Part shown: positions 21,901-40,613 of the stretch, piece by piece
How the letters are laid out: every line of letters begins with the position of its first letter
How positions within the stretch are numbered: position 1 is the first letter of the stretch
Made by a program: the position numbers and the translations under genes
IMG/VR virus record: IMGVR_UViG_650377933_000002
Length of the DNA: 55,306 nt
Reading direction: 5' to 3' (one strand)
DNA from: a virus
Lineage: Duplodnaviria > Heunggongvirae > Uroviricota > Caudoviricetes
Notes under the pieces: generated by a model
Seen by the model: the letters and a program-made list of their open reading frames with translations, nothing else
Database searches by the model: none
What the model was told of the DNA's origin: nothing

Positions 21901-22117
21901 GTCCTTTCCGTCGATCCAACAGGTTACGGGGCGGCGACCTCGCGGGTTTTCGCTATTTATGAAAATTTTCCGGTTTAAGGCGTTTCCGTTCTTCTTCGCC
22001 GTAACCTAATGTTTTTATTTAAAACACCCCCTGAAAAGAAAGGAAACGACAGGTGCTGAAAACGGGCTTTTTAGCCTCTGTCGTTTCCTTTCTCTGTTTT
22101 TGTCCGTGGAATGAACA
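21901..22117 (+). other. phage cos site (cosQ-cosN-cosB); cosN cohesive-end sequence GGGCGGCGACCT at 21929..21940
   Basis: Matches lambda ..CAACAGGTTACG|GGGCGGCGACCTCGCGGGTTTTCGCTATTTATGAAAATTTTCCGGTTTAAGGCGTTTCCGTTCTTCTTCG.. immediately upstream of Nu1. Confidence 0.9.
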
Positions 22118-26364: not shown

Positions 26365-27676
26365 TCTCCCGCATATTGCCAGCATGGCCTTTAATGAGCC
26401 GCTGATGCTTGAACCCGCCTATGCGCGGGTTTTCTTTTGTGCGCTTGCAGGCCAGCTTGGGATCAGCCGCCTGACGGATGCGGTGTCCGGCGACAGCCTG
26501 ACTGCCCAGGAGGCACTCGCGACGCTGGCATTATCCGGTGATGATGACGGACCACGACAGGCCCGGAGTTATCAGGTCATGAACGGCATCGCCGTGCTGC
26601 CGGTGTCCGGCACGCTGGTCAGCCGGACGCGGGCGCTGCAGCCGTACTCGGGGATGACCGGTTACAACGGCATTATCGCCCGTCTGCAACAGGCTGCCAG
26701 CGACCCGATGGTGGACGGCATTCTGCTCGATATGGACACGCCAGGCGGAATGGTGGCGGGGGCATTTGACTGCGCTGACATCATCGCCCGTGTGCGTGAC
26801 ATAAAACCGGTATGGGCGCTGGCCAACGACATGAACTGCAGTGCAGGTCAGCTGCTTGCCAGTGCCGCCTCCCGGCGTCTGGTCACGCAGACCGCCCGGA
26901 CAGGCTCCATCGGCGTCATGATGGCTCACAGTAATTACGGTGCTGTCCTGGAGAAACAGGGTGTGGAAATCACGCTGATTTACAGCGGCAGCCATAAGGT
27001 GGATGGCAATCCCTACAGCCATCTTCCGGATGACGTCCGGGAGACACTGCAGTCCCGGATGGACGCAACCCGCCAGATGTTTGCGCAGAAGGTGTCGGCA
27101 TATACCGGCCTGTCTGTGCAGGCTGTGCTGGATACCGAGGCTGCAGTGTACAGCGGTCAGGAGGCCATTGATGCCGGACTGGCTGATGAACTTGTTAACA
27201 GCAGCGATGCGATCACCGTCATGCGTGATGCACTGGATGCACGTAAATCCCGTCTCTCAGGAGGGCGAATGACCAAAGAGACTCAATCAACAACTGTTTC
27301 AGCCACTGCTTCGCAGGCTGACATCACCACCGTGGAGCCTGCGAAGGAGGGCGAAAACGCCAGCGCGGCGCAGCCGGATGTGAACGCACAGATCACCGCA
27401 GCGGTTGCGGCAGAAAACAGCCGCATTATGGGGATCCTCAACTGTGAGGAGGCTCACGGACGCGAAGAACAGGCGCGCGTTCTGGCAGAAACCCCCGGAA
27501 TGACCGTGGAAACGGCCCGCCGCATTCTGGCCGCAGCACCACAGAGTGCACAGGCGCGCAGTGACACTGCGCTGGATCGTCTGATGCAGGGTGCACCGGC
27601 ACCGCTGGCTGCAGGTAACCTGGCATCTGATACCAATAAAGAATTACTTAATACACCTGAAGCTTTACCGGTATAA
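26345..27676 (+). CDS. C: prohead protease/scaffold C (with in-frame nested Nu3 scaffold)
   Basis: ORF 26198..27676; GTG at 26345 (VTAELRNLPHIASMAFNEPLMLEPAYARVFF..) matches the lambda C start and overlaps the B stop; ClpP/S49-like region present. Confidence 0.9.
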
Positions 27677-27685
27677 GAGGCAGTT

Positions 27686-28018
27686 ATGGCGACAAAAGAA
27701 GAGTTTAACCATTACCAGCCGCTGGGTAACAGTGATCCGGCTCATACAGCAATTGCGCCTGGCGGATTGAGTGCGAAAACGCCTGCAATGACCCCACTGA
27801 TGCTGGATGGCACTACCCGTAAGCTGGTTGTGTGGGATGGCACCACCGACGGTGCAGCCGTTGGCATTCTTGCGGTTGCTGCTGACCAGACCAGCACCAC
27901 ACTGACGTTCTACAAGTCCGGCTCGTTCCGTTATGAGGATGTGCTCTGGCCGGAGGCTGCCAGCGACGAGACGAAAAAACGGACCGCGTTTGCCGGAACG
28001 GCAATCAGCATCGTTTAA
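27686..28018 (+). CDS. D: head decoration protein D
   Basis: 110-aa ORF matching lambda gpD (..[30 protein letters not shown]...[64 protein letters not shown]). Confidence 0.9.
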
Positions 28019-28037
28019 TCTTCCCCTTCATCAACAA

Positions 28038-28060
28038 AGGCCGCCTGTGCGGCTTTTTTT
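28038..28060 (+). terminator. short hairpin plus T7 run between D and E (weak terminator-like element)
   Basis: GCCGC CTGT GCGGC followed by TTTTTTT; the stem is only 5 bp, so function is doubtful. Confidence 0.3.
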
Positions 28061-28073
28061 ATGGAAATAATTT

Positions 28074-28349
28074 ATGTCTGTATATACAACTGCAGAATTA
28101 CTGGCATCGACCCAGCATCACTTTAAGTTCGATCCGCTGTTTCTGCGCCTGTTTTTCCGTGAAACCTATCCTTTCACCACGGAAAAAGTCTATCTCTCAC
28201 AAATTCCGGGACTGGTAAACATGGCGCTGTACGTTTCGCCGATTGTTTCCGGTGAGGTTATCCGATCCCGTGGCGGCTCCACCTCTGAATTTACGCCGGG
28301 TTATGTCAAACCCAAGCACTTAGCATGGCTTTCTGAGGCTTTCGTGTAG
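28074..28349 (+). pseudogene. E: major capsid protein E, 5' fragment (interrupted by insertion)
   Basis: First 82 codons match lambda E (MS.YTTA.LLA.....FKFDPLFLRLFFRE.YPFTTEKVYLSQIPGLVNMALYVSPIVSGEVIRSRGGSTSEFTPGYVKPKH), then 9 unrelated codons and a stop; the remainder of E resumes at 39388. Confidence 0.9.
28309..28318. repeat. left copy of 10-bp direct repeat AACCCAAGCA (candidate att core)
   Basis: Identical 10-mer at both E/insert junctions (28309..28318 and 39386..39395). Confidence 0.65.
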
Positions 28350-28481
28350 TTGCTGGTTTTTACACTTAATCTTTTGATAATAAAGAATAAGTTTATCTGG
28401 CGCTTTCACTGAATTTTCCTCGTTATCTGTGTGTTGCAATCATCTCTGTATTGCAGCTTGTATTGCTTTTTGGGGCTAAAA

Positions 28482-29717
28482 ATGGCTGGCGAGAACAAAC
28501 TGAGCGACAAAGCGCTTAAAGGATATCTGGGGAAACCCAGAGAAAAGCAGATCACCATTGCTGATGGAAAGGGGCTTTCTATTCGTGTGAGTACTAAAGG
28601 GGCTGTGAGCTTTGTTTTCTTCTACAGGTTAGCAGGTGGCCGGGATGCTCCGGTCTGGCTAACGTTGGGTAAATATCCTGATATGTCACTCAAACAGGCA
28701 AGGGAAAAGCGCGACGAGTGCCGTGGTTGGTTGGCTGACAAACGTGATCCGCGTATCCAGATTAAGATTCAGGCTGAAGAACGCTTAAAGCCGGTCACAG
28801 TGGAGGATGCACTAAATTACTGGTATGAAAATTACTGTAAGGTGCGTCGTAAAACTCATGCTGTAACGCTTGGCAGATTTCGAAAGCATATCTTTCCCTA
28901 TATCGGTCATTTGCCCGTAAATGACACTCACCTATATGAATGGCTGGACTGTTTTGACCGAATTAAACGTAATGCACCAGTTATGGCGGCGTATGTTTTT
29001 TCTGACACTAAATTAGCTCTTCGTTTTTGTCGGGTACGCCAGTACGCGACGTGTGATGCTTTAAAGGATTTGCGCATGAGTGATGTGGGGCAGATTGCAG
29101 GTAAGCGGGATCGGGTTCTGGATGAAGCCGAACTGGGCCAGCTCTGGAAGGCAATTTTTGTCGAGCCTGATTTAAAACTAATGTCTGAATACACGCGAAA
29201 AATGTTTGTGCTTTGTACAGTATTTGGATGTCGAATGAGTGAAGCCCGATTATCTGAATGGAGCGAATGGGATCTCGAAAGTTGGGTTTGGACTGTACCA
29301 AAAGATCACTCAAAAACTGGTGTTGAAATCGTCAGACCAGTACCTGAAATTCTACGACAGTGGGTAACGGATGTTCACGAAGAGACAAAACATACTGGTT
29401 ATGTGCTGGGAAGTCTGCGAATTAGAGAAAGCGTAAGCAAGATTGGGGGGAAAATCGGTAAACGTTTGGGCCATGAAAAACAATGGTCACTACACGACCT
29501 TAGAAGAACGCTATCTACTCATCTAAGTGATCTCGGTGTTGAATTTTATGTAGTAGAACAACTGTTAGGCCATGCGCTACCTGGCGTGGCAGGTGTTTAC
29601 AACCGGAGTAAGTTTATGGCTAAAAAACTGGATGCTCTGGAACTCTGGACTACATATCTCAATAGCATCGCAGGTGCTGATTCAAAAGTGACAATCCTCA
29701 AACAAAAGGCTGGTTAA
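28482..29717 (+). CDS. int: P4-type tyrosine integrase of the inserted element
   Basis: ORF 28431..29717; plausible ATG at 28482 (MAGENKLSDKALKGYLGKP..); C-terminal catalytic region (..WSLHDLRRTLSTHLSDLGV....LLGHALPGVAGVYNRS..). Confidence 0.85.
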   Translation: MAGENKLSDKALKGYLGKPREKQITIADGKGLSIRVSTKGAVSFVFFYRLAGGRDAPVWLTLGKYPDMSLKQAREKRDECRGWLADKRDPRIQIKIQAEERLKPVTVEDALNYWYENYCKVRRKTHAVTLGRFRKHIFPYIGHLPVNDTHLYEWLDCFDRIKRNAPVMAAYVFSDTKLALRFCRVRQYATCDALKDLRMSDVGQIAGKRDRVLDEAELGQLWKAIFVEPDLKLMSEYTRKMFVLCTVFGCRMSEARLSEWSEWDLESWVWTVPKDHSKTGVEIVRPVPEILRQWVTDVHEETKHTGYVLGSLRIRESVSKIGGKIGKRLGHEKQWSLHDLRRTLSTHLSDLGVEFYVVEQLLGHALPGVAGVYNRSKFMAKKLDALELWTTYLNSIAGADSKVTILKQKAG

Positions 29718-29718
29718 C

Positions 29719-29946
29719 ATGAAAAAAATGGCAATTGTTGATAAAAAGGGTCTGGAGTACATTCCTAACATCGATCGTATGATCCGTGAGAAAGAATGTC
29801 GGGAGCTAACCACTCTTGCAAACAGCACACGCTGGAAGCTGGAGAAGGAAGGAAAATTTCCTAAGCGGATCAAGATTGGTTCCACTGCTGTTGCATATCG
29901 TCTTTCAGAAGTGCAGGCATGGATTCGAGGTGAGTGGGTAGTTTAA
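29719..29946 (+). CDS. alpA: AlpA-family transcriptional regulator/excisionase
   Basis: 75-aa ORF 1 nt after the int stop, with AlpA-like HTH (..RELTTLANSTRWKLEKEGKFPKRIKIGSTAVAYRLSEVQAWI..). Confidence 0.8.
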   Translation: MKKMAIVDKKGLEYIPNIDRMIREKECRELTTLANSTRWKLEKEGKFPKRIKIGSTAVAYRLSEVQAWIRGEWVV

Positions 29947-30015
29947 ATTATCTCAGAATAAAATATTATGAATTACTGATTTGAGAATTTGTACTCAAAT
30001 CAGTAATAACATTCT

Positions 30016-30552
30016 TTATAAGAGATTAAATCCAAATAAAGAGTAATCATATACCGGGGTGCATTGCATCCCACTGAATATGCTGATGTTTTTTTCTGTT
30101 TCTATCCTTTTTTCAATAAGTTGTTGTATATTTTTACAGTACAATTTGTGTGTGATGTTATTATCGTAAGCCTGATATAGCAACGTCAATGTTGACGCTA
30201 GGAAACATACAGATAAAATTAAAATAATATATGCAGTTTTTTTATTTTTTGTCCATGATCTATTTGTTTGTGAAATATAAAGAATTCTGAGGTGGATAAT
30301 GGTGAGAGACAATAGCAGGCCACTCAATAAAATAAGTATTGGGTTTGCGTATTTTATTAATGGTTGAGAGCAAAAAACTATTATAGCTCCTGTGACTGCG
30401 TATGAGAAAAAGGAGTGATTAAACTTCTTACTCCTTCTCTCAAGTATTTTAATTTCATCTTGCGTGGGGGTTTTAGATGCCTCTAATATAAGTTTATTGA
30501 ATTTTTCTGTTATCTTGTTTTTTGTGTTTGTGGCTATTTTTTTTAGATTCAT
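30016..30552 (-). CDS. hypothetical membrane protein (AT-rich accessory gene)
   Basis: 178-aa ORF in a very AT-rich segment; at least three hydrophobic helices (..VTGAIIVFCSQPLI..ILILLSGLLLSLTIIHL..AYIILILSVCFLASTLTLLY..). Confidence 0.45.
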   Translation of the reverse strand: MNLKKIATNTKNKITEKFNKLILEASKTPTQDEIKILERRSKKFNHSFFSYAVTGAIIVFCSQPLIKYANPILILLSGLLLSLTIIHLRILYISQTNRSWTKNKKTAYIILILSVCFLASTLTLLYQAYDNNITHKLYCKNIQQLIEKRIETEKNISIFSGMQCTPVYDYSLFGFNLL

Positions 30553-30902
30553 AGCATTCTAACTCCCTTAACTTATTTATTACTTTCTCTTTATGATAAG
30601 AGAGGGGAATGACTTGGTAAAGTGATTTGTCATTAATAATGATAATCCTTGCGATAAATATTTCTGCAAGTTATTTATCTGTTTGTTGCTATCTTGTTAA
30701 GCGTTGGGTGTGGTTTATGTTTGGAGTGACTTTATTTAATCGTGATTTTATGGATTTATATTTATATCCTGTAAGATAAGCGCATGTTAGTTCAGGAGTA
30801 GTGTCAGATAAAATTATTCGGAGTAGAACTACCTTTTCTGTTTATTGCCAGTATTTACATAGCAATGCGCCGTAGTTACTCACATCACGGCGCTGATACT
30901 AA

Positions 30903-31205
30903 TTATTCAGATTCTTTGGCTTTACGCCGCTGGAGTTCTTCACGAGCGACGGCTACGAGTTGCCCGATTTCCTCCGCTACCTTGATGCCGATTTGTTCGA
31001 CCTTAGCTAAGGCATCCAGTGAAGACACGAGGGGATTTTCTCCGCTTCCTTCTGCCTGGCGGCGGGCGATCTCACCGCGCATGGCGGTTACTATGAATCC
31101 GGCGTTGCTTTCGCCGTCCAGTTTTACGGATTCCATGCCCTCCATAACATCGTGGGGAACCCTGATCGTTGTCATTTGCGATTTTGCATTTTTGTATACA
31201 GACAT
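30903..31205 (-). CDS. putative transcriptional regulator of the element
   Basis: 100-aa ORF divergent from the replication operon and separated from it by an operator-like repeat region; charged coiled-coil-like C-terminus; function inferred from position only. Confidence 0.4.
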   Translation of the reverse strand: MSVYKNAKSQMTTIRVPHDVMEGMESVKLDGESNAGFIVTAMRGEIARRQAEGSGENPLVSSLDALAKVEQIGIKVAEEIGQLVAVAREELQRRKAKESE

Positions 31206-31413
31206 AGTTAATCACCAATTTGTTATGTGTATATCACTATACACAAAAGTGAGATATAAAAACACTTGCAATGTATATCACCACAATATAATGTATATCT
31301 CACATTATGGTCGCTATGTATCTCACAATGATCGATTCATAAAAACGACGAAACCCGGCAGTGCGCGAACACTAACCGGGCTTCTAACCAAACCGTTAAA
31401 CGAGGTAACGACT
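31206..31413. promoter_or_regulatory. divergent promoter region with repeated TGTATATC(A/T)CA operator-like motifs
   Basis: Four or more copies/inverted copies of GTGTATATCAC, GTGAGATATA, TGTATATCACC, TGTATATCTCACA, TGTATCTCACA within about 110 bp. Confidence 0.5.
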
Positions 31414-31704
31414 ATGGCTGGAACACAGCATACCCAAACTCACCCTAAATTTATATACATCTTTCTGGCGCTACATCGCGATCGCATAGCAGATGGAGCA
31501 ACTACGGTACATGTAGCCGCTGACACGCTGTTTATTCAGAAATGTGAAAACAATTTCATCTGGCGTTTTATCGCCCTGAGTACGGCACAACCGCGCGTGA
31601 TTACCATCGAGGCCACCAGCGAACAGGAAGCCCGCCAGCAATCCCCAACTGGCTGCGTGATGATATTCGCCGCCCGTATTCGTCAGGAGGTGTGCCATGA
31701 ATGA
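31414..31704 (+). CDS. hypothetical protein (first gene of the rightward operon)
   Basis: ORF 30865..31704 is long only because of an upstream GC-rich read-through; ATG at 31414 with GAGG RBS gives 96 aa; stop overlaps the next start. Confidence 0.4.
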   Translation: MAGTQHTQTHPKFIYIFLALHRDRIADGATTVHVAADTLFIQKCENNFIWRFIALSTAQPRVITIEATSEQEARQQSPTGCVMIFAARIRQEVCHE

Positions 31705-31921
31705 TCTTTATTTTAAAGTGCTGACACATGCTGAAAACGCGCTCGTTTGTGGCAAAAATATGCGAGAAATCTTATCAACCTGGCTTGATGGGACAACAAA
31801 TGCGGAACACGATGAACGGGATGCTAATTTAGCTGGAGCGTTAATTACGTTACTTGATCCTGTCATCAAAGAGCTGGATGAAGCTATAAAAATACACGAC
31901 CAGAGCTATACCGGAGAATAA
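31697..31921 (+). CDS. hypothetical protein
   Basis: 74-aa ORF, start overlapping the previous stop (translational coupling). Confidence 0.4.
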   Translation: MNDLYFKVLTHAENALVCGKNMREILSTWLDGTTNAEHDERDANLAGALITLLDPVIKELDEAIKIHDQSYTGE

Positions 31922-31923
31922 AA

Positions 31924-32211
31924 ATGAAAAATAAATTTTCTGGCTTTATTGCCAGCGGTCAAACTCATTCAAAAATCAGCCTTGGGGATATTTTCAAAGA
32001 TAGCTATGGCTATCGAGTAAAGATTATTTCGGTTGATGATCGCCGTGTCTCTTATTTGCGTGATGGTTATGATTTTGAATGTGTTATGCCGCGTCAGCAG
32101 TTCGAAAGAGATTTCATTCTGGTAAAAAATTGCAAGACAGATAATCAGAGGCGTTCCGCAGGCTATATCCGCAAAATTCGGGCAATGTTAGTTGCCGGAG
32201 GTAACAAATGA
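31924..32211 (+). CDS. hypothetical protein
   Basis: 95-aa ORF; stop overlaps the primase start. Confidence 0.4.
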   Translation: MKNKFSGFIASGQTHSKISLGDIFKDSYGYRVKIISVDDRRVSYLRDGYDFECVMPRQQFERDFILVKNCKTDNQRRSAGYIRKIRAMLVAGGNK

Positions 32212-34028
32212 AACGTGCTCCGAACTTAAAATACCAACCGCGCGACAAAATGACAGAAGTCATCATTTTTGCTGGCAGTGATGCCTGGAGCCATGCAAAA
32301 GAATGGAATGAATGGGCGGGTAAGCATATTGCAGCAGATGATACACCACCAGTCATTCTGGGTACGGAACAACTGGAAAACCTGGATGATATGCAAATTA
32401 TCGATGAAGGCCGTCATTATGTGCGTGTTTATCGTGCCGGAAAGATCGCAGAGAAAAATCTGACGAAGGTTGCGACATTACTTGCTATTGCAGGCGTAAA
32501 GGAAGCACGTTGTTACCGTAGCTTTGTTGATCGAGAGCCTGAAGACTGGACTCCGCGCCTTGTCGGCCTAAAAGCTGAAGCGGAGCATGGGGAAAGTCTG
32601 GTGATTGAACTGCCAGTGAAGAAGGCAGAGCGCAAAAATGACGAGCGTGCTTCATCTTTGGCGTTGAATCAGATGGGGGCCAGCCAGCGCGGTGAAGTTC
32701 TCCTGGCACATTACGGCGGCGAACTGGCAATCAATGCCGACTCTGACACCGTTCATCATTACAACGGCGTTGTATGGGAGCCGGTTCAGGATAAAGAGTT
32801 ACAGCGTGCTATGGCGCAGATTTTCATTGATGCGGAGATCAGCTATTCGCAGAACGCCATTAAATCGGCGGTAGATACCATGAAGTTAAGTTTGCCTGTA
32901 ATGGGGAATACAGCCCGTAACCTGATTGGATTCAGTAACGGGGTATTTGATACCAGAACTGGTAATTTTCGGGAGCATAACAAAAACGACTGGTTGTTAA
33001 TTGCCAGTGAATTACCTTTCAGCCCACCAGCAGAGGGGGAAACGCTGGCAACACATGCGCCGAATTTCTGGAAGTGGTTGCGCCGTTCGGTGGCTGAGAA
33101 TGACCGCAAGGCAGATCGCGTACTGGCGGCATTATTCATGGTGCTGGCGAACCGGTACGACTGGCAGTTATTCATTGAGGTAACAGGGCCGGGGGGAAGT
33201 GGTAAAAGTGTGATGGCGGAGATTTGCACCATGCTGGCGGGTAAGGCTAATACAGTATCAGCAAGCATGAAGGCGCTGGAAGATGCAAGGGAACGTGCGT
33301 TAGTGGTTGGCTTTTCGCTGATTATCATGCCGGATATGACCCGCTACGCTGGTGATGGGGCAGGGATTAAGGCCATTACAGGCGGTGACAAGGTGGCAAT
33401 TGACCCGAAACACAAAGCCCCCTATTCAACGCGTATTCCGGCAGTAGTGCTGGCGGTTAACAATAACGCCATGTCATTCAGTGACCGCAGCGGGGGGATC
33501 TCACGTCGTCGGGTGATATTCAATTTTTCGGAAGTTGTACCGGAGAACGAACGCGATTCGATGCTGGCGGAAAAAATAGAAGGTGAGCTGGCGGTAGTGA
33601 TTCGCCATCTGCTTACACGGTTTGCTGATCAGGACGAAGCCAGACGCCTGTTATATGAGCAGCAGAAATCTGAAGAAGCACTGGCGATAAAGCGAGAGGG
33701 GGATTCGCTGGTGGACTTCTGCGGCTATCTCATGGCATCGGTAATGTGTGATGGCCTGTTAGTGGGTAATGCTGAAATTGTGCCATTCAGCCCACGCAGG
33801 TATCTCTATCATGCCTATCTGGCTTATATGAGGGCACATGGGTTTGGTAAACCTGTAACACTGACGCGCTTCGGTAAAGATATGCCGGGGGCAATGGCGG
33901 AATATGGCAGGGAGTATATGAAACGGAAAACGAAGCACGGTTTGCGTTCAAACGTGACACTGACGGAGGAATCAGAAGACTGGATGCCATCATGTGTATC
34001 GGTCACTAATGACGATAGCAAAAATTAA
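32208..34028 (+). CDS. primase/helicase (P4-alpha-like, SF3-type P-loop NTPase)
   Basis: 606-aa ORF with GGAGG RBS; Walker A VTGPGGSGKS and downstream Walker B-like acidic stretch (LIIMPDMT); followed by an iteron array. Confidence 0.8.
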   Translation: MKRAPNLKYQPRDKMTEVIIFAGSDAWSHAKEWNEWAGKHIAADDTPPVILGTEQLENLDDMQIIDEGRHYVRVYRAGKIAEKNLTKVATLLAIAGVKEARCYRSFVDREPEDWTPRLVGLKAEAEHGESLVIELPVKKAERKNDERASSLALNQMGASQRGEVLLAHYGGELAINADSDTVHHYNGVVWEPVQDKELQRAMAQIFIDAEISYSQNAIKSAVDTMKLSLPVMGNTARNLIGFSNGVFDTRTGNFREHNKNDWLLIASELPFSPPAEGETLATHAPNFWKWLRRSVAENDRKADRVLAALFMVLANRYDWQLFIEVTGPGGSGKSVMAEICTMLAGKANTVSASMKALEDARERALVVGFSLIIMPDMTRYAGDGAGIKAITGGDKVAIDPKHKAPYSTRIPAVVLAVNNNAMSFSDRSGGISRRRVIFNFSEVVPENERDSMLAEKIEGELAVVIRHLLTRFADQDEARRLLYEQQKSEEALAIKREGDSLVDFCGYLMASVMCDGLLVGNAEIVPFSPRRYLYHAYLAYMRAHGFGKPVTLTRFGKDMPGAMAEYGREYMKRKTKHGLRSNVTLTEESEDWMPSCVSVTNDDSKN

Positions 34029-34039
34029 ACTTATGGAAT

Positions 34040-34275
34040 AACTGTTCACCACTGTTCACCCTGTCATAAATATCTTTTATATCAGTATATTATAGGGTGA
34101 ACAGTTATTTATGAACTGTTCACCAAACTATTCACTGTTCACCTTTTTGATTGTTTATTGAGCTTCAAGGGTGAACAGTAGTGAACAGTTGGTGAATAGT
34201 TTTTGTGAAACTGTTCACCCATTAACATTATGAATTAAAAGAGAAAATATCAAAAGGTGAACAGGTGAAGGGTTA
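34040..34275. repeat. iteron array (about 9 copies of CTGTTCACC in both orientations), candidate replication origin of the element
   Basis: ACTGTTCACC at 34041 and 34051, GGGTGAACAGTT at 34095, AACTGTTCACC at 34114, CACTGTTCACC at 34133, GGGTGAACAGTAGTGAACAGTTGGTGAATAG at 34169..34199, CTGTTCACCC at 34211, GGTGAACAGGTGAAG at 34257. Confidence 0.75.
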
Positions 34276-34315
34276 AAACGCAAAAATTTTAATTTACTGC
34301 TGTGAGATAAAGCCT

Positions 34316-34561
34316 ATGACAGCGAAGCACACAAAAAAATCACAATCGCACGCCCTTGATTTGACGGAACACTGGTTAAGGGTGTCGATAAAAATCATCG
34401 ACCGCAACGCCGGGGAAGGATACGCGAAAGCACATCCCGAACTGATTAGCGCATTCATGACAACGGCGGCTGCAAACTTTGCCACTCTGACCGAACGGGA
34501 GATTGCTGAAGCGGAGGAAGTGACAACAATCAATATTAAGTCCGGAGAGCAGGCAGCATGA
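34316..34561 (+). CDS. hypothetical protein
   Basis: 81-aa ORF; stop overlaps the start of the downstream SSB-like gene (ATGA). Confidence 0.4.
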   Translation: MTAKHTKKSQSHALDLTEHWLRVSIKIIDRNAGEGYAKAHPELISAFMTTAAANFATLTEREIAEAEEVTTINIKSGEQAA

Positions 34562-35007
34562 CGGCGCAAATATCAGTTTACGGGCGGTTGGTGGACGACC
34601 CGCAGACAAAACAGACCAGCAAGGGCACCCCCATGACGCTGGCGCGTATGGCGTTATCACTGCCCTGCAGTCAGTCGGATGACGGTCAGGCGACGATGTG
34701 GTTATCTGTCCTGGCGTTTGGCAGACAAGCCGACGCGCTGGCAAAGCATCACAAAGGCGAACTCCTGAGCGTGGCGGGTAATATGCAGGTGAGCCAGTGG
34801 ACTGGACAGAACGGTGAAACGCGGCAGGGCTGGCAGGTTATCGCAGACAGCGTAATCAGTGCGCGAACGGTGCGACCGGGCGGCAAAAAAGGTCAACAGG
34901 GTCAGGCTACTGACGCACTGAACAGAGCAAAACAACAGGCAGATCAGCAAGGAAGCCATCCACCAGTGGGAGATAATGAACAATGGGGAGATGATATTCC
35001 GTTTTAA
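34558..35007 (+). CDS. SSB-like single-stranded DNA-binding protein
   Basis: 149-aa ORF ending in the canonical SSB acidic tail ..DDIPF preceded by a Gly/Gln-rich linker. Confidence 0.7.
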   Translation: MTAQISVYGRLVDDPQTKQTSKGTPMTLARMALSLPCSQSDDGQATMWLSVLAFGRQADALAKHHKGELLSVAGNMQVSQWTGQNGETRQGWQVIADSVISARTVRPGGKKGQQGQATDALNRAKQQADQQGSHPPVGDNEQWGDDIPF

Positions 35008-35224
35008 ATATTGCCAATAAAAAAGGCCGGAAAAAAATAAATTTTCCGGCATGCTACATAAATCCCGACCAAAGGGAGTGAAGATATTAACACTAATTAT
35101 CCGCGCTGAAGTTGTTATCCCAAAACTTTATACAACATTGCACTCGGTTGCATGTATTCGCATGACAAATATCGGTGATAGCATATATCCACAATTATTT
35201 TTAATGAATGCAAAGAGGATGCGT

Positions 35225-36265
35225 ATGGTTGATTTATATTCGCCTACCCAGCTTGTACAGGTGGTTAATGCTGTAGATGTACAAAAACAACTAAATGCGT
35301 TGTTTACCAGTTTGTTTTTTACTCGCTCGGTAATGTTTGAATCGCGCGATATTATTCTTGATACAATCGACGATCCAAATATCCCAATTGCAGCGTTTTG
35401 TTCTCCTATGGTGGGTAGTAAAGTTTCACGTGACGAAGGGTACGAATCAAAAACAATTCGTCCAGGCTATATGAAGCCGAAAAGCAGCATTGATCCAAAT
35501 AAGTTAGCTGTGCGCCCTGCTGGTGTATCACCTGAGCAATACAATGCTTTTGGAGCGCGTAATATTAAAGTTAAACAGGCGATTGTAAATCAGGCTAAAG
35601 CTATTCGTGCACGTATTGAATGGCTTGCCGTTCAGGCAATCACAACGGGGAAAAATATCATTGAGGGCGATGGTATTGAACGTTATGAGCTGGACTGGAA
35701 TATTAAACCACAAAATATCATCACTCAGTCTGGCGGTGCTGAGTGGTCAGGTAAGGATAAAGAAACTTTTGATCCAAATGATGATATTGAGAGCTACGCA
35801 GAATTTAGTGAGGGCGTCACTAATATCATCATTATGGGCGGTAATGTATGGAAGAAATACCGTTCATTCAGAGCGATAAAAGAGGCTCTGGATACCCGTC
35901 GTGGTTCTAATTCCGAACTGGAAACGGCTCTTAAAGACCTTGGTGATTCGGTGAGTTTTAAAGGGTATATGGGCGATGTTGCGATTGTTGTATACAGCGG
36001 GCGTTATACCGACGAGGACGGAACTGAAAAACATTTCCTTGATCCTGATTTGATGGTGCTTGGCAATACGGCTCTTCAGGGGATTGTCGCCTATGGCGGT
36101 ATTCAGGATCCGGAGCTAATCCGAATGGGGCTGACTAAAGCCGAACTTGCACCGAAAAACTATATTGTGCCTGGTGATCCGGCTATTGAATATGTGCAGA
36201 CACATTCAGCACCACAGCCAATACCGGCCCGCATCAATCGTTTTGTTACCGTTCGCATTGGCTAA
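35225..36265 (+). CDS. lambda E-like major capsid protein encoded by the inserted element
   Basis: ORF 35051..36265; ATG at 35225 with AAGAGG RBS gives 346 aa; clear homology to lambda E (RPGYMKPKSSIDP / ITQSGGAEWSGKDKETFDPNDDIESYAE / DTRRGSNSELETALKDLGDSVSFKGYMGDVAIVVYSGRY versus lambda TPGYVKPKHEVNP / ITQSGGTEWSKRDKSTYDPTDDIEAYAL / DTRRGSNSELETAVKDLGKAVSYKGMYGDVAIVVYSGQY). Confidence 0.8.
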   Translation: MVDLYSPTQLVQVVNAVDVQKQLNALFTSLFFTRSVMFESRDIILDTIDDPNIPIAAFCSPMVGSKVSRDEGYESKTIRPGYMKPKSSIDPNKLAVRPAGVSPEQYNAFGARNIKVKQAIVNQAKAIRARIEWLAVQAITTGKNIIEGDGIERYELDWNIKPQNIITQSGGAEWSGKDKETFDPNDDIESYAEFSEGVTNIIIMGGNVWKKYRSFRAIKEALDTRRGSNSELETALKDLGDSVSFKGYMGDVAIVVYSGRYTDEDGTEKHFLDPDLMVLGNTALQGIVAYGGIQDPELIRMGLTKAELAPKNYIVPGDPAIEYVQTHSAPQPIPARINRFVTVRIG

Positions 36266-36274
36266 GGGGGAGCA

Positions 36275-36616
36275 ATGGCTACTCATTACACTGAACTCAT
36301 GGCTGGCACTGAAGCACTGGTGACTACGCTGGGGATATTTTCAGCTAATAAAGGGGTAATTCCTGCATTTACGCCACTGATGCAGGAAGATGCAACAGGT
36401 GCACTGGTGGTATGGGATGGTTCGAGCGTAGGTAAAGCGGTTTATGTTTCCGCTGTACAAATCGACACCGCGAAAAAAACACAGGCTCAGGTCTATAAGA
36501 CAGGTGTCTTAAATGTTGATGCTCTGAACTGGCCTGAGTCTGTAAAAGAACTGTCAGTAAAGATTGCAGCGTTTGTTGGCTCAGGTATTTCTGTTCAGCC
36601 GCTGGCTCGTGTGTAA
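36275..36616 (+). CDS. D-like head decoration protein encoded by the inserted element
   Basis: 113-aa ORF directly after the E-like gene; weaker similarity to lambda D (..ALVVWDGSSVGKAVYVSAV.. / ..AAFVGSGISV.. versus ..[19 protein letters not shown].. / ..[11 protein letters not shown]). Confidence 0.55.
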   Translation: MATHYTELMAGTEALVTTLGIFSANKGVIPAFTPLMQEDATGALVVWDGSSVGKAVYVSAVQIDTAKKTQAQVYKTGVLNVDALNWPESVKELSVKIAAFVGSGISVQPLARV

Positions 36617-36627
36617 AGGGGGATACA

Positions 36628-37011
36628 ATGCAGAATGATTACAATGACCTTAAGCCAATTGCCGAAATGATGTACCCGAATCCAGCTGTAGAGGAATTAA
36701 AAGCTATCGCTGACAAAATGTGTTTAAGCGAGCGCCTTGTTGATATGAATCAGGTGATGGAAATTACAACCCTGAGTCGGCGTACACTGCTAAACCTTGA
36801 GGCTAGTGGAGAGTTCCCGGAGCGTGTGCAGGTTACGGAAGGGCGTAAGGCCTGGTATTTAAGTGAAGTGATCGACTGGATAAATAATATTCCTCGCGCT
36901 TCTGAATATTGCCGCGTACCTGTCCCAAAAAAGCCAGATGCGGCGCTATGCCTCAAGATTGAGCGTGTACGCCGCAATGCACGGGATGGTCGCTATAAGC
37001 TGATTGGTTGA
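36628..37011 (+). CDS. AlpA-like HTH DNA-binding protein directly upstream of the element cos site
   Basis: 127-aa ORF; central AlpA-like motif (..MNQVMEITTLSRRTLLNLEASGEFPERVQVTEGRKAWYLSEVIDWI..). Confidence 0.5.
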   Translation: MQNDYNDLKPIAEMMYPNPAVEELKAIADKMCLSERLVDMNQVMEITTLSRRTLLNLEASGEFPERVQVTEGRKAWYLSEVIDWINNIPRASEYCRVPVPKKPDAALCLKIERVRRNARDGRYKLIG

Positions 37012-37019
37012 TGAAATTA

Positions 37020-37256
37020 GGGCCCGCTCTGGCTGGCGGGTCCTTTCCGGCGATCTGACAGGCTACGGGGCGTCAGGCGCGCAGTTTTTCTCTATTTATG
37101 GAAATTTTCCGGTTTAAGGCATTTCCGTTCTTCTTCGCCGTAACTTTATGTTTTTATTTAAAATACCCCCTGAAAAGAAAGGAAATGACAGGCGCTGAAA
37201 ACGGGCATTTTGGCCTCTGTCGTTTCCTTTCTCTGTTTTTGTCCGTGGAATGAACA
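37020..37256 (+). other. second cos-like site carried by the inserted element (divergent cosN, conserved cosB)
   Basis: About 215 bp homologous to the phage cos/Nu1 leader at 21901..22117; cosB side nearly identical (..TATTTATG.AAATTTTCCGGTTTAAGGC.TTTCCGTTCTTCTTCGCCGTAAC..GAAAAGAAAGGAAA.GACAGG.GCTGAAAACGGGC.TTTT.GCCTCTGTCGTTTCCTTTCTCTGTTTTTGTCCGTGGAATGAACAATG) but the cosN segment differs (ACGGGGCGTCAGGCGCGCAG versus ACGGGGCGGCGACCTCGCGG). Confidence 0.8.
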
Positions 37257-37451
37257 ATGGAAGTCAACAAAGATCAACTGGCTGACATTTTGGGCAAGAG
37301 TTGTGCAATACTTTTGTCAGACGTAAATATTTTTGAGGAACATTATTATATTGATGTAATTAGAGATATGTTTGATAGGACTAGAAATAAAGCAGACGCC
37401 TTAGTTATGTCAATTGCTGAAATAATAAAGGAAAATAGCAATGATAAATAG
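37257..37451 (+). pseudogene. Nu1 5' remnant fused to unrelated AT-rich sequence
   Basis: First about 12 codons resemble Nu1 (MEVNKDQLADILG versus MEVNKKQLADIFG) then diverge into AT-rich sequence; 64-codon ORF ends at a convergent terminator. Confidence 0.5.
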
Positions 37452-37453
37452 AA

Positions 37454-37477
37454 AAAAGCGGTCACGCGACCGCTTTT
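37454..37477. terminator. bidirectional intrinsic terminator between convergent genes
   Basis: AAAAGCGGTC ACG CGACCGCTTTT palindromic hairpin flanked by A-run and T-run. Confidence 0.65.
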
Positions 37478-37514
37478 ATTATTTGCAAGTTATTTTTTTG
37501 CTGGAGATAAACTA

Positions 37515-38063
37515 TTACTGTTCACCAATTTGCTCTCTAAACTGTGTACTGAACGTATCTAGTTGAGAGACAAATGAATGTGCATTTAAAAATTTATTAT
37601 AAATCTCTTCAGCTGTGCTTTCTAATACAAAAGTAGCATAATTATTATGTGCTAATTTATTTCTTAGCTCTCCGATTTCCATAAAATCAGAGATAGACTT
37701 GGTCAACTCTGTGCTTGATTTTACCTTCTCAATCATAAACTCTTTAAATTTTGGGCCAAAAAAGGAAAAAAACTGGTTTGCATTCCTTTTTTTCCAATCA
37801 AAGAGTGTATGATACTGCCTGGTTAGGGCCTTATTATCGATAAAATCGTGTGTAAGATTACATTGGCTTGGGTTAAGCATACAATGTATCTTAGTTACAA
37901 CTAAAGTTTCAAAATAGCTAGCACATGCTAATAGCATTACTTTTGAAAATTGTGATTTGTAATCATTAGCAAAACTAATCTCATTATGAGTTAGAAGAAA
38001 ATCATAATAACACTTATAGTTATTAAACATACTTTCAATAGAAGTATATCCCATATCCTCCAT
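37515..38063 (-). CDS. HEPN-like protein (Rx4H motif), downstream gene of the DUF262 operon
   Basis: ORF 37515..38096 (GTG); ATG at 38063 lies 4 nt after the upstream stop; C-terminal ..EIGELRNKLAHNNY.. fits the HEPN Rx4-6H motif; strongly AT-rich. Confidence 0.5.
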   Translation of the reverse strand: MEDMGYTSIESMFNNYKCYYDFLLTHNEISFANDYKSQFSKVMLLACASYFETLVVTKIHCMLNPSQCNLTHDFIDNKALTRQYHTLFDWKKRNANQFFSFFGPKFKEFMIEKVKSSTELTKSISDFMEIGELRNKLAHNNYATFVLESTAEEIYNKFLNAHSFVSQLDTFSTQFREQIGEQ

Positions 38064-38067
38064 TATT

Positions 38068-39231
38068 TTACATTCCCTCCAAAATTGTTCTTGCACGTTC
38101 TAGACGTCCAATTACATGCTCTCTTCTTGTTGTTTTATCAGTACTAAATGTCAGAAATTCAGGATCATTTTTAAGCTTATCGATGTAATTCACCGTCACT
38201 TGTCTTATTTTTAGATCTTTATCTTTAAATGAGTCATAAGTTGCAGCATAAAAAATTGACTCAAATAAAGTTATACTCATACGATTCCCACCAGTTCTGA
38301 AATTGATTTCATCAATTCCATCAACACTATCCATAAATTCATTCCATATATTACTAAATAAAGTTATGTCTTTAGTGTCGTAGTTTTTTGCATAATTTGA
38401 GAAATTGTTCAAAAAACCGCTAACTGAGCTTTTGTATTGAGATGTAAAAAGGGACATAGCAAATGTGCGCAATATCGCTTCAATATCACTCAATCGCATG
38501 TCAACAACATTTTTTGAAAGAATTTTTCTCCATGTCTTGTTTTCATTCAATGAAACAAGATTTGAAAGAAAGTCTGAGTGATATAAACTCATACGAATTT
38601 CTTGAGGAGAAAGGTTCATTCCCCCACTATTTAGGCGGTTAAATATTTCAAACATTGCACCATCTTCCGAATCTTGTGCAACCGGTTTGATTACCATATT
38701 TCGTATGGTTGCCAGATTTAAAGTGGTTTGAAATTCGTTTAATGTTTCATAGTTTTTCCCATTAAACTTGTTTTTTTGGGTGTCTGATAGACCATCAAGT
38801 TTTAGGTTGAACTTTGTGAAGTATTCATCATTGTGAAGAATGTTTTCTGGAATGTTTCCATTATCTTCAAAGATTTTTCTCAGTTCAGAACGTTTCTCTT
38901 TTCTAGGGAATACACCATTTACAAAGTAATAAAGGGTCATTAATCTCTGCTGACCATCTATCACTAAAAATTCATTTTTATCTTGTTCATATAAAAATAT
39001 TTGAGGTATAGGAAGGCCTATTAAAAGAGATTCAATGAGTTTTGATGCTCGTTTGATATCCCAAACATAATGCCTTTGAAAGTTAGGGATTTTAAAAACT
39101 TTTGATTTAATAAAACTTATAATTGTGATTATATTAAAATCATTGGGCGTAGTAGTAAGTTGAAACTCATCAATTGGATAGGATTCTGGCTCATCCTCGT
39201 ATTGCTTTTCTTCATAATCTTCTGGTTGCAT
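38068..39231 (-). CDS. DUF262 (ParB-like nuclease/NTPase superfamily) protein
   Basis: ORF 38068..39279 (GTG); ATG at 39231 (MQPEDYEE..) preceded by AAGGA; hallmark DUF262 motif ..FLVIDGQQRLMTLYYF..; strongly AT-rich. Confidence 0.7.
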   Translation of the reverse strand: MQPEDYEEKQYEDEPESYPIDEFQLTTTPNDFNIITIISFIKSKVFKIPNFQRHYVWDIKRASKLIESLLIGLPIPQIFLYEQDKNEFLVIDGQQRLMTLYYFVNGVFPRKEKRSELRKIFEDNGNIPENILHNDEYFTKFNLKLDGLSDTQKNKFNGKNYETLNEFQTTLNLATIRNMVIKPVAQDSEDGAMFEIFNRLNSGGMNLSPQEIRMSLYHSDFLSNLVSLNENKTWRKILSKNVVDMRLSDIEAILRTFAMSLFTSQYKSSVSGFLNNFSNYAKNYDTKDITLFSNIWNEFMDSVDGIDEINFRTGGNRMSITLFESIFYAATYDSFKDKDLKIRQVTVNYIDKLKNDPEFLTFSTDKTTRREHVIGRLERARTILEGM

Positions 39232-39385
39232 CGTGTCATCCTTTTTCTTCGTGAATATGGTTTTTAGACAAGTCCTCACTACACATATCTGTATTGCAGA
39301 AAGTATTGCAGTGATAGGAGTTGCGTAGATATATAAACCACAAAGCTAAGTGAAATCAAATAGTTCTTTCGGGATTGACTCATGT

Positions 39386-39395
39386 AACCCAAGCA
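39386..39395. repeat. right copy of 10-bp direct repeat AACCCAAGCA (candidate att core)
   Basis: Identical to 28309..28318; immediately followed by the in-frame continuation of E. Confidence 0.65.
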
Positions 39396-40176
39396 TGAGG
39401 TGAATCCGCAGATGACCCTGCGTCGCCTGCCGGATGAAGATCCGCAGAACCTGGCTGACCCGGCTTACCGTCGTCGCCGTATTATTCGGCAGAATATGCT
39501 GGATGAAAATCTGGCGATTGCCCAGGTCGAAGAGATGCAGGCAGTTTCTGCCGTGCTTAAGGGCAAATATACCATGACCGGTGAAGCCTTCGATCCGGTT
39601 GAGGTGGATATGGGCCGCAGTGAGGCGAATAACATCACGCAGTCCGGCGGCACGGAGTGGAGCAAGCGTGACAAGTCCACGTATGACCCGACCGACGATA
39701 TCGAAGCCTACGCGCTGAACGCCAGCGGTGTGGTGAATATCATCGTGTTTGATCCGAAAGGCTGGGCGCTGTTCCGTTCCTTCAAAGCCGTCAAGGAGAA
39801 GCTGGATACCCGTCGCGGCTCTCATTCCGAGCTGGAGACAGCGGTAAAAGACCTGGGCAAAGCGGTGTCTTATAAGGGAATGTATGGCGATGTGGCCATC
39901 GTCGTGTATTCCGGACAGTACGTGGAAAACGGCGTCAAAAAGAACTTCCTGCCGGACAACACGATGGTGCTGGGGAACACTCAGGCACGCGGTCTGCGCA
40001 CCTATGGTTGCATTCAGGATGCGGACGCACAGCGCGAAGGCATTAACGCCTCTGCCCGTTACCCGAAAAACTGGGTGACCACCGGCGACCCGGCGCGTGA
40101 GTTCACCATGATTCAGTCAGCACCGCTGATGCTGCTGGCTGACCCTGATGAGTTCGTGTCTGTACAACTGGCGTAA
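39388..40176 (+). pseudogene. E: major capsid protein E, 3' fragment (codons 80-341)
   Basis: In-frame from CCC AAG CAT GAG GTG AAT CCG CAG (PKHEVNPQMTLRRLPDEDPQNLADPAYRRRRII..SVQLA), matching the lambda E C-terminal 259 aa; joined to 28074..28319 it gives a full 341-aa E. Confidence 0.9.
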
Positions 40177-40217
40177 TCATGGCCCTTCGGGGCCATTGTT
40201 TCTCTGTGGAGGAGTCC

Positions 40218-40613
40218 ATGACGAAAGATGAACTGATTGCCCGTCTCCGCTCGCTGGGTGAACAACTGAACCGTGATATCAGCCTGACGGGGACGAAAGA
40301 AGAACTGGCGCTCCGTGTGGCAGAACTGGAAGAAGAGCTTGATGACACGGGCGACACTGCCGGTCAGGATATCCCTCTCAGCCCGGAAAATGTGCTGACC
40401 GGACATGAAAATGAGGTTGTATCAGCGCAGCCGGATACCGTGACTGATACGGCTGATCTGGTCACGGTTGTGGCACTGGTGACGCTGCATACTGATGCAC
40501 TTCACGCCACGCGGGATGAGGCTGTGGCATTTGTGCTGCCGGGAACGGCGTTCCGTGTCTCTGCCGGTGTGGCAGCTGAAATGACAGAGCGCGGCCTGGC
40601 CAGAATACAATAA
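40218..40613 (+). CDS. FI: DNA packaging protein FI
   Basis: ORF 40179..40613; ATG at 40218 (MTKDELIARLRSLGEQLNRD.SLTGTKEELALRVAEL..) matches lambda FI. Confidence 0.9.
   Translation: MTKDELIARLRSLGEQLNRDISLTGTKEELALRVAELEEELDDTGDTAGQDIPLSPENVLTGHENEVVSAQPDTVTDTADLVTVVALVTLHTDALHATRDEAVAFVLPGTAFRVSAGVAAEMTERGLARIQ

Follow-up and report, generated by a model that had tools for sequence, protein, structure and literature searches.

The segment at positions 34040-35007 of the window (the whole 55,306-nucleotide stretch of viral DNA analyzed here) is, with a probability that we put at about 0.8, the replication module of a Gram-negative PICI that is helper-embedded in the capsid gene of a lambdoid prophage. 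Behind the initiator gene rep, the segment contains an iteron array, which is the putative origin of replication (ori), and the gene pair orf81-ssb. Our confidence in the role proposed below for the single-stranded DNA-binding protein (SSB) is lower than that in the origin. The features of the module and its surroundings are as follows.

28309..39395, plus strand: helper-embedded PICI (HE-PICI) that owns the module, 11.1 kb, bounded by the 10-bp repeat AACCCAAGCA
32208..34028, plus strand: Rep initiator, 606 aa, annotated as "DNA primase family protein"; phrog_864
32208..32600, plus strand: N-terminal domain of Rep, aa 1 to ~130, weak Toprim-like fold
33699..33989, plus strand: C-terminal winged-helix origin-binding domain of Rep, aa 498-594
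34042..34264, no strand assigned: iteron array and putative ori, CTGTTCACC copies in both orientations
34061..34095: AT-rich spacer 1, 35 bp, 80% A+T, between convergent iterons; candidate DNA-unwinding element
34220..34255: AT-rich spacer 2, 36 bp, 83% A+T, "ATTAAAAGAGAAAA", between convergent iterons
34316..34561, plus strand: orf81, small helical protein, 81 aa; phrog_1231, E=2e-48
34558..35007, plus strand: ssb, 149 aa; OB fold at aa 4-99, short linker, acidic tip GDDIPF
35026..35050, no strand assigned: G+C-rich hairpin between ssb and the island capsid gene, with a T-run on the minus-strand side only

In the lambdoid prophage that harbors it, the island interrupts the lambda-E-like major capsid gene and has the same orientation as this gene. 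The two capsid gene fragments lie at 28074-28318 and ~39396-40176, and AACCCAAGCA is present at both junctions. This location, inside a co-oriented late gene of a prophage and with a short block of att identity, is that of an HE-PICI, and the unidirectional arrangement from int and alpA to pri, in an island within the range of ~10-20 kb, is that of a Gram-negative PICI. The genes are arranged in the order int, alpA, a YlcI-like gene on the reverse strand, icd-like, DUF4222, Rep, ori, orf81 and ssb, followed by capsid E, decoration D, an alpA-like gene and HEPN/DUF262. An Rfam scan of positions 27500-40500 returned nothing, with no P4 CI-, C4- or isrK-like RNAs at the gathering score. The island is 100% identical to one in E. 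coli L1PEag1, and its relatives differ mainly in their defence cargo. Among 5426 complete E. coli genomes, 667 contain the iteron region at a coverage of at least 80%, with no annotation for it. The main value of the present analysis is accordingly one of correct annotation, as the ori of a widespread island type is unannotated in RefSeq. Moreover, the 10.8-kb circular record pZ1323HEC0475-3 is a PICI with the same Rep/ori type, and its circularity is consistent with an episomal form.

How is the putative origin organized? The original prediction of about nine iterons in about 235 bp, immediately after the initiator gene, agrees well with our count of 10-12 sites in about 223-230 bp, the first of which lies 13 bp past the Rep stop codon. 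Within 34042-34264 (223 bp), CTGTTCACC occurs in eight exact copies, located on the plus strand (starting at 34042, 34052, 34116, 34135, and 34211) and on the minus strand (starting at 34096, 34170, and 34256). Two copies with one mismatch, both on the minus strand, lie at 34180 and 34191, and a relaxed-pattern scan adds two sites, the two-mismatch copy CTATTCACT (34128) and the half-site TTCACC (34264). The tandem iterons are spaced by 10-11 bp. The G+C content of the array is 28-35%, as compared to ~50% in the flanking genes, and neither a DnaA box, nor GATC, nor an IHF core is present in the iteron region. Only two exact CTGTTCACC copies exist in the remaining 55 kb of the window, the other exact TGTTCACC 8-mers in the window are isolated, and the island contains no second iteron cluster.

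The AT-richness of the array, taken alone, speaks for the repeats having arisen by chance or from the low complexity of AT-rich intergenic DNA. However, the observed CTGTTCACC count was reached by none of 100 shuffles, and the same was true of the 8-mer TGTTCACC. In PICIs with ori regions that are 76-78% identical, the iterons are invariant and the spacers have drifted, and in the comparison of 80 loci described below different species share the array at this position, with 8-mers that depend on the lineage. On these grounds a chance origin of the repeats is practically negligible, and we rejected it. The array was also considered as a packaging site, and this was rejected because the lambda cosN sequence was not found in the island and the same array recurs across related loci.

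The 8-mer within these repeats is the replication repeat of satellite phage P4. The P4 GenBank record X51522 annotates TGTTCACC as "ori type 1 repeat", and the window iteron thus consists of the P4 repeat plus an additional conserved base at its flank. In P4, TGTTCACC occurs both in ori and in crr, a region that is required in cis for replication and immediately follows the alpha gene, and P4 and the island carry the identical, clustered 8-mer in both orientations, as expected for a P4-type replicon. The similarity extends beyond the 8-mer: the distal part of the island array aligns with the 120-bp P4 crr unit, including its AT-rich center "AATTAAAAGAGAAA", with which spacer 2 (34220..34255) aligns, and its terminal GGTGAACAG-GTGAA pair. 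A full-text literature search for "TGTTCACC" returned unrelated primer sequences only.

The initiator gene is likewise related to that of P4. Rep shares 51% identity over 449 aa (E=1e-162) with residues 323-771 of P4 alpha, which constitute the helicase and origin-binding part of that protein. It contains the Pfam domains D5_N, DUF5906, and Pox_D5, and is an SF3 helicase with the Walker A motif GPGGSGKS. The C-terminal residues 498-594 match the P4 alpha origin-binding domain (PDB 1KA8; phmmer E=1.9e-24), and Rep thus joins a P4 alpha-homologous SF3 helicase to a 1KA8-type winged-helix domain. The P4 repeat, the 1KA8-type domain, and the same gene order in the PICI EcCICFT073 support the assignment of the repeats as putative origin-type iterons that belong to the adjacent initiator Rep, as had been supposed at the outset. 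Judged by these homologies, the putative ori of this island type can now be labelled a P4-type iteron origin.

In order to compare the initiators with their iterons, we used a profile of the helicase and origin-binding domain, which found 80 loci in other species; two of these loci come from Zobellella and Oceanisphaera, and most from Enterobacterales. In ~67 of the 80 loci, at least four TGTTCACC-like sites lie within 450 bp after the Rep stop codon, and there are essentially none elsewhere in these 9-kb loci. The remaining lineages have the same array layout with other 8-mers, namely TGTCTACC, TCTCCACC, TGTCCGCC, TGTCCACC, and TATCTACC. These switches of the iteron type coincide with changes in the loop of the origin-binding domain that follows the conserved "EYGxxY" motif; in the TGTC-type lineages, this loop carries a 5-residue insertion, and the domain is otherwise conserved. 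Such covariation, which is a correlation and not a proof, is the pattern expected if the origin-binding domain reads the iterons. The repeated switches of iteron specificity, together with the changes in one Rep loop, would provide a natural set of orthogonal Rep/ori pairs.

Does Rep also act as a primase? The upstream gene had been taken for a primase-helicase, and the helicase half of this label is well founded (D5_N and DUF5906). The primase half lacks both a catalytic motif and a Pfam match, as the N-terminal domain of Rep has zero Pfam matches. This domain has no BLAST similarity to residues 1-322 of P4 alpha, and its profile-profile comparison with the P4 Toprim region yields an hhalign probability of 0.06, i.e., no similarity. 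Its invariant columns do not contain the E...DxD signature, and it has no zinc ribbon. Accordingly, the N-terminal domain presents neither the Glu and DxD ligands nor the zinc-binding domain of a DnaG/Toprim-type primase, and Rep does not contain the zinc-ribbon and EGYATA Toprim primase of a P4-type replicon. A hand alignment that placed Ala22 of Rep at the Glu of EGYATA was discarded and does not constitute evidence, because the profile-profile comparison shows no similarity. Overall, no primase catalytic domain is recognizable in the Rep sequence, and the "primase" label of the family appears doubtful, since it rests on the helicase and D5 domains and not on an active site. A non-canonical primase activity of Rep is possible; the primase-less view is built on the absence of motifs and a weak fold match.

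We propose the following mechanism for replication of the island. The winged-helix domain of Rep would bind the 10-12 TGTTCACC iterons, which are arranged in convergent sets around the two ~35-bp AT-rich stretches. Rep would then oligomerize across the convergent sets, melt one of the AT-rich stretches, and load itself as the replicative SF3 helicase. This loading would be DnaA-independent, because the region has no DnaA box. Host DnaG would probably prime the unwound DNA, since no primase active site is recognizable in Rep, and host Pol III would perform the synthesis. The orf81-ssb pair would be an accessory cassette expressed from the same rightward transcript as Rep, because neither a consensus sigma-70 promoter nor a plus-strand terminator is present between Rep and ssb. 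The SSB would coat the unwound strands, and its D-x-IPF tip would recruit the host factors that dock on E. coli SSB (chi, PriA, DnaG, and others).

The island origin, which follows pri directly on the 3' side and has iteron sets around an AT-rich region, conforms to the description of Gram-negative PICI origins by Fillol-Salom et al. (2018, PMC6092414), who give the same position and two iteron sets with an AT-rich region between them. The pri-ori segment of EcCICFT073 maintains a plasmid in E. coli DH5alpha without a helper, and deletion of rep or ori impairs this maintenance (PMC6092414). Because the rep-ori segment of this homologue maintains a plasmid, the pri-ori plasmid experiment has in essence already been done. 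The supplements of that paper do not list the iteron sequences as text.

Is the array itself the origin, or mainly a crr-like control element? As a control element, the array would limit copy number by handcuffing, sequester Rep, or form either a transcriptional roadblock or an operator that governs orf81-ssb and the late genes, and the island would be replicated chiefly passively by the helper prophage. Both the position and the sequence of the array match P4 crr and not P4 ori. In addition, because the stretch from Rep to orf81 has neither a terminator nor a consensus promoter, the transcription of orf81-ssb must cross the Rep-bound array. A related island, Eco567.11capE (11capE), is an 11-kb helper-embedded PICI in a capsid gene, and according to the available passages of the paper describing it, its attP after excision was about equal to attB in two experiments out of three, with 1.6-1.9 in the remaining one, and emphasis is placed there on passive replication driven by the helper (Tommasini, Mageeney and Williams 2023, PMC10111431). 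However, the island has no second iteron cluster that could act as the true ori, and two AT-rich stretches between convergent iterons are typical of an unwinding site. Moreover, deletion of the equivalent region in EcCICFT073 reduces plasmid maintenance (PMC6092414). We consider it quite unlikely that control is the main function of the array, and the control and origin roles are not mutually exclusive. The prediction of autonomous replication is thereby supported in one respect, as the EcCICFT073 homologue of Rep, with 44% identity, replicates a plasmid, and weakened in another, as 11capE replicated little after excision in the passages cited above.

The preferred reading of the array as an origin leaves the function of the two genes downstream to be considered. 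The 149-aa protein is a true SSB by family. Its OB fold scores above the curated cut-offs of PF00436 (E=1e-15, 58.1 bits; cut-off 26) and TIGR00621 (67 bits; cut-off 53.95), it matches many solved SSBs in the PDB, and its C-terminus is an acidic, IPF-ending tip, ...WGDDIPF, with the tip codons at 34990-35004. Both the DDIPF tail and the translational coupling of this gene to a small upstream ORF had been noticed in the original prediction; consistently, the stop codon of orf81 overlaps the start codon of ssb in the sequence ATGA at 34558-34561. Binding of ssDNA and oligomerization are predicted. As compared to E. coli SSB, the island protein shares the OB fold, the ...DDIPF tip, and the equivalents of Trp54, Phe60, and Trp88, while the equivalents of Trp40 and His55 are not conserved, the identity is 24%, and the protein is shorter (149 versus 178 aa), with a shorter linker.

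Among the matches listed, ~104 of 120 C-termini in the SSB family end with IPF, VPF, or LPF, and the common tail variants, xD[NDGE]IPF, retain an acidic residue four positions from the end. This conservation across the family therefore indicates that the tip is under constraint. The C-terminal tip of E. coli SSB binds the chi subunit of Pol III, PriA, DnaG, RecQ, and others, and it is a sound inference from the shared tip that the island SSB may bind these host partners. The orf81 protein has no match in Pfam, NCBIfam, or PADLOC. Its homologues form 159 clusters, in which every name is "hypothetical", and the records listed for them are from Escherichia, Shigella, and Citrobacter. With a pLDDT of 63 and a pTM of 0.32, the AF2 model of this protein is poor and therefore unfit for a fold search.

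The distribution of the gene pair differs from that of the array. Of the 80 cross-species P4-type loci, only 3 have an ssb gene downstream of Rep, and the other 77 lack it there. A pair of a small ORF and ssb also follows a RepA-family helicase with iterons of a very different sequence, AAAAGTGAGG (locus L088), and a DUF5906 Rep in a capsid-forming PICI (cf-PICI; locus L089), and the 4-nt overlap between the two genes is present in EcCICFT073, L088, and L089. As it is rare beside P4-type Rep and found after unrelated initiators with unrelated iterons, orf81-ssb is a portable accessory cassette that is placed after origins. In EcCICFT073, the replication construct is described as rep and ori, with ssb unmentioned (PMC6092414). 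The earlier notion that the SSB is part of the origin module is thus not sustained, and the role of the SSB in replication is not essential, because the gene is absent from most P4-type replicons and unmentioned in this construct.

The portability of the cassette, its absence from these 77 replicons, and its going unnamed in the replicating construct also lend themselves to a different interpretation, in which orf81-ssb serves the conflict among satellite, helper, and host. It would titrate host SSB-interacting proteins from the helper, protect satellite ssDNA, or modulate a defence that senses SSB or ssDNA. In the literature searched, the only mention of a PICI SSB is its grouping with the replication genes: in the available passages of the HE-PICI paper, Primase, SSB, and DUF5906 make up the "Replication" category adjoining the mapped origins (PMC10111431). 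However, the cassette is always the next element after the ori and points in the same direction as Rep, and the defence-system models gave no match. Furthermore, it is established knowledge that replication modules of phages and plasmids often have an SSB gene beside the origin. We regard a primary function in conflict as unlikely, and favor an accessory function in replication.

As a separate observation on these genes, three independent PICIs carry in-frame fusions of an N-terminal Rep fragment to the SSB. The Rep fragments are ~55, 80, and 142 aa in length, and all three fusions join the SSB immediately before SVLAFGRQ, at residue ~50. The helicase, the ori, orf81, and the start of ssb are deleted in these fusions.

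Two further ideas are conceivable, if somewhat unlikely. In one, orf81-ssb would be a replisome adaptor that brings host DnaG and Pol III, via the SSB tip, to a primase-dead Rep, which would account for the presence of one and the same cassette behind unrelated initiators. In the other, P4-like satellites and this PICI would undergo cross-talk via their shared iterons: with identical TGTTCACC repeats and similar origin-binding domains, their Reps could fire or block each other's origins in a shared cell.

How does the module compare with known systems? P4 shares its iteron 8-mer with the island. In both P4 and the island, an array lies directly downstream of the initiator gene, with crr in the position of the island array and with similar repeat units, and both are without DnaA boxes. 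In contrast, P4 has two separated clusters, ori and crr, whereas the island has only one, and the island has no terminator between the Rep gene and the array. P4 replication needs both ori and crr, and the single island array probably combines the roles that P4 splits between them. The initiators differ in their N-terminal parts, where the 322-aa zinc-ribbon/EGYATA Toprim primase domain of alpha is replaced in Rep by an unrelated 148-aa domain, and P4 has no adjacent ssb gene. Since the Gram-negative PICI ori is homologous to P4 crr, it is not unique to PICIs, which contradicts a statement in the 2018 paper (PMC6092414).

EcCICFT073 shares the gene order of the island, with DUF4222, pri, an iteron region of 288 bp, an ORF of 85 aa, ssb (with the 4-nt overlap), capsid E, and decoration D. 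Over the full length, including the N-terminal domain, Pri of EcCICFT073 is 44% identical to Rep, its orf85 is 83% identical to orf81, and its SSB is 68% identical to the island SSB, with the GDDIPF tip. However, the EcCICFT073 iterons are TGTCTACC/TATCTACC, in contrast to TGTTCACC in the island, and EcCICFT073 is chromosomal, near phoQ, whereas the window island lies inside a prophage gene. Replication was demonstrated experimentally for EcCICFT073, while the window island is known from its sequence.

Eco567.11capE, compared by its description in the available passages of PMC10111431, resembles the window island in its length of 11 kb, its insertion into a lambda-E-like capsid gene, its 10-bp block of att identity, and the possession of a capsid gene of its own; these passages differ from the present description in giving neither the iteron sequence nor the link to P4. 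The Rep of the SaPIs (Gram-positive PICIs; PDB 7OLA) matches the island Rep with E=2.6e-10 over the helicase core only, and its origin-binding domain and iterons are unlike those of the window island. The P4 alpha/iteron replicon, the pri-ori module of Gram-negative PICIs, and the HE-PICI type are thus already published, and the SSB has been annotated and categorized. To these, the present analysis adds the homology between the PICI ori and P4 crr, the switches of iteron type that accompany changes in the loop of the origin-binding domain, and the doubt about the primase label of the initiator.

How is the replication module of the island rearranged among its relatives? First, the origin changes its repeat while keeping its architecture. 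Arrays with an unchanged layout but other 8-mers (TGTCTACC, TCTCCACC, TGTCCGCC, TGTCCACC and TATCTACC) follow related Rep genes, in the first 300 bp past the Rep stop codon in loci L015, L016, L018, L020, L022-L026 and L076-L078, and at 18997-19284 in L091. These switches are accompanied by changes in one loop of the Rep origin-binding domain, including a 5-aa insertion. Second, the small ORF and ssb, with their 4-nt overlap, occur after other initiators (L088, 3334-5593; L089, 2841-5569), being preceded by a RepA-family helicase with the unrelated iterons AAAAGTGAGG and, in a capsid-forming PICI, by a DUF5906 Rep. The pair is therefore a cassette that moves between replicon types.

Finally, different PICIs repeatedly show SSB fused in frame behind an N-terminal piece of Rep, of about 55, 80 or 142 aa (L092/L093, 4001-4702; L094/L095, 4001-4519; proteins P0016, P0010 and P0059), with the helicase, the ori and orf81 deleted. 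The SSB sequence is joined at the identical point in all of them, residue ~50 ('|SVLAFGRQ'), which corresponds to window ~34700-34715. The right-hand breakpoint of the fusions is fixed.

The 10,790-bp circular record L087 (NZ_CP148328.1), labelled a plasmid by its depositors, is an entire PICI carrying int, alpA, an icd-like gene, DUF4222, a Rep of the window-island type, the ori and a protease-capsid fusion, which suggests that it is the assembled, excised episomal form of such an element. The lambda cosN core GGGCGGCGACCT is matched exactly in the helper prophage (window 21929-21940), and is absent from the island with up to two mismatches allowed, save for a chance match inside Rep.

Features in and around the island (window coordinates; strand where assigned)
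28074-28318 and ~39396-40176: fragments of the split capsid gene
28309-28318 and 39386-39395: 10-bp att repeats, AACCCAAGCA, one on each side of the island
30016-30552, minus: hydrophobic-looking 178-aa ORF between alpA and the YlcI-like gene
30903-31205, minus: YlcI/YnfO-like gene
31414-31704, plus: Icd-like gene
35026-35050: G+C-rich hairpin between ssb and the capsid gene
35237-36265: the island's own capsid-E homologue
36275-36616: its decoration-D homologue
36628-37011: its second AlpA-like gene
37515-39279, minus: HEPN and DUF262 proteins, island 3′ end

The HEPN/DUF262 pair matches PADLOC NsnA (9e-60) and PD-T4-2_A/B, and is likely anti-phage cargo. Its position is a variable defence slot, since in close relatives of the island it is filled by TIR, Abi or DUF2971 genes. 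The 178-aa ORF has no match in PHROGs or PADLOC, and the corresponding stretch in relatives holds other genes, such as TIR. The hairpin has its T-run on the minus-strand side, and would thus terminate leftward rather than rightward transcription.

The YlcI/YnfO-like and Icd-like genes lie where P4 has its immunity region; Rfam detects no C4/isrK-type RNA at the gathering score. The island's capsid-E and decoration-D genes have their counterparts in c1499/c1500 of EcCICFT073, the deletion of which had no phenotypic effect in the study of 2018 (PMC6092414). E precedes D in the island, whereas lambda has the opposite order. The overall arrangement is the helper-embedded PICI type published for 11capE; the island matches the configuration described there (PMC10111431), including the 10-bp flanking repeat.
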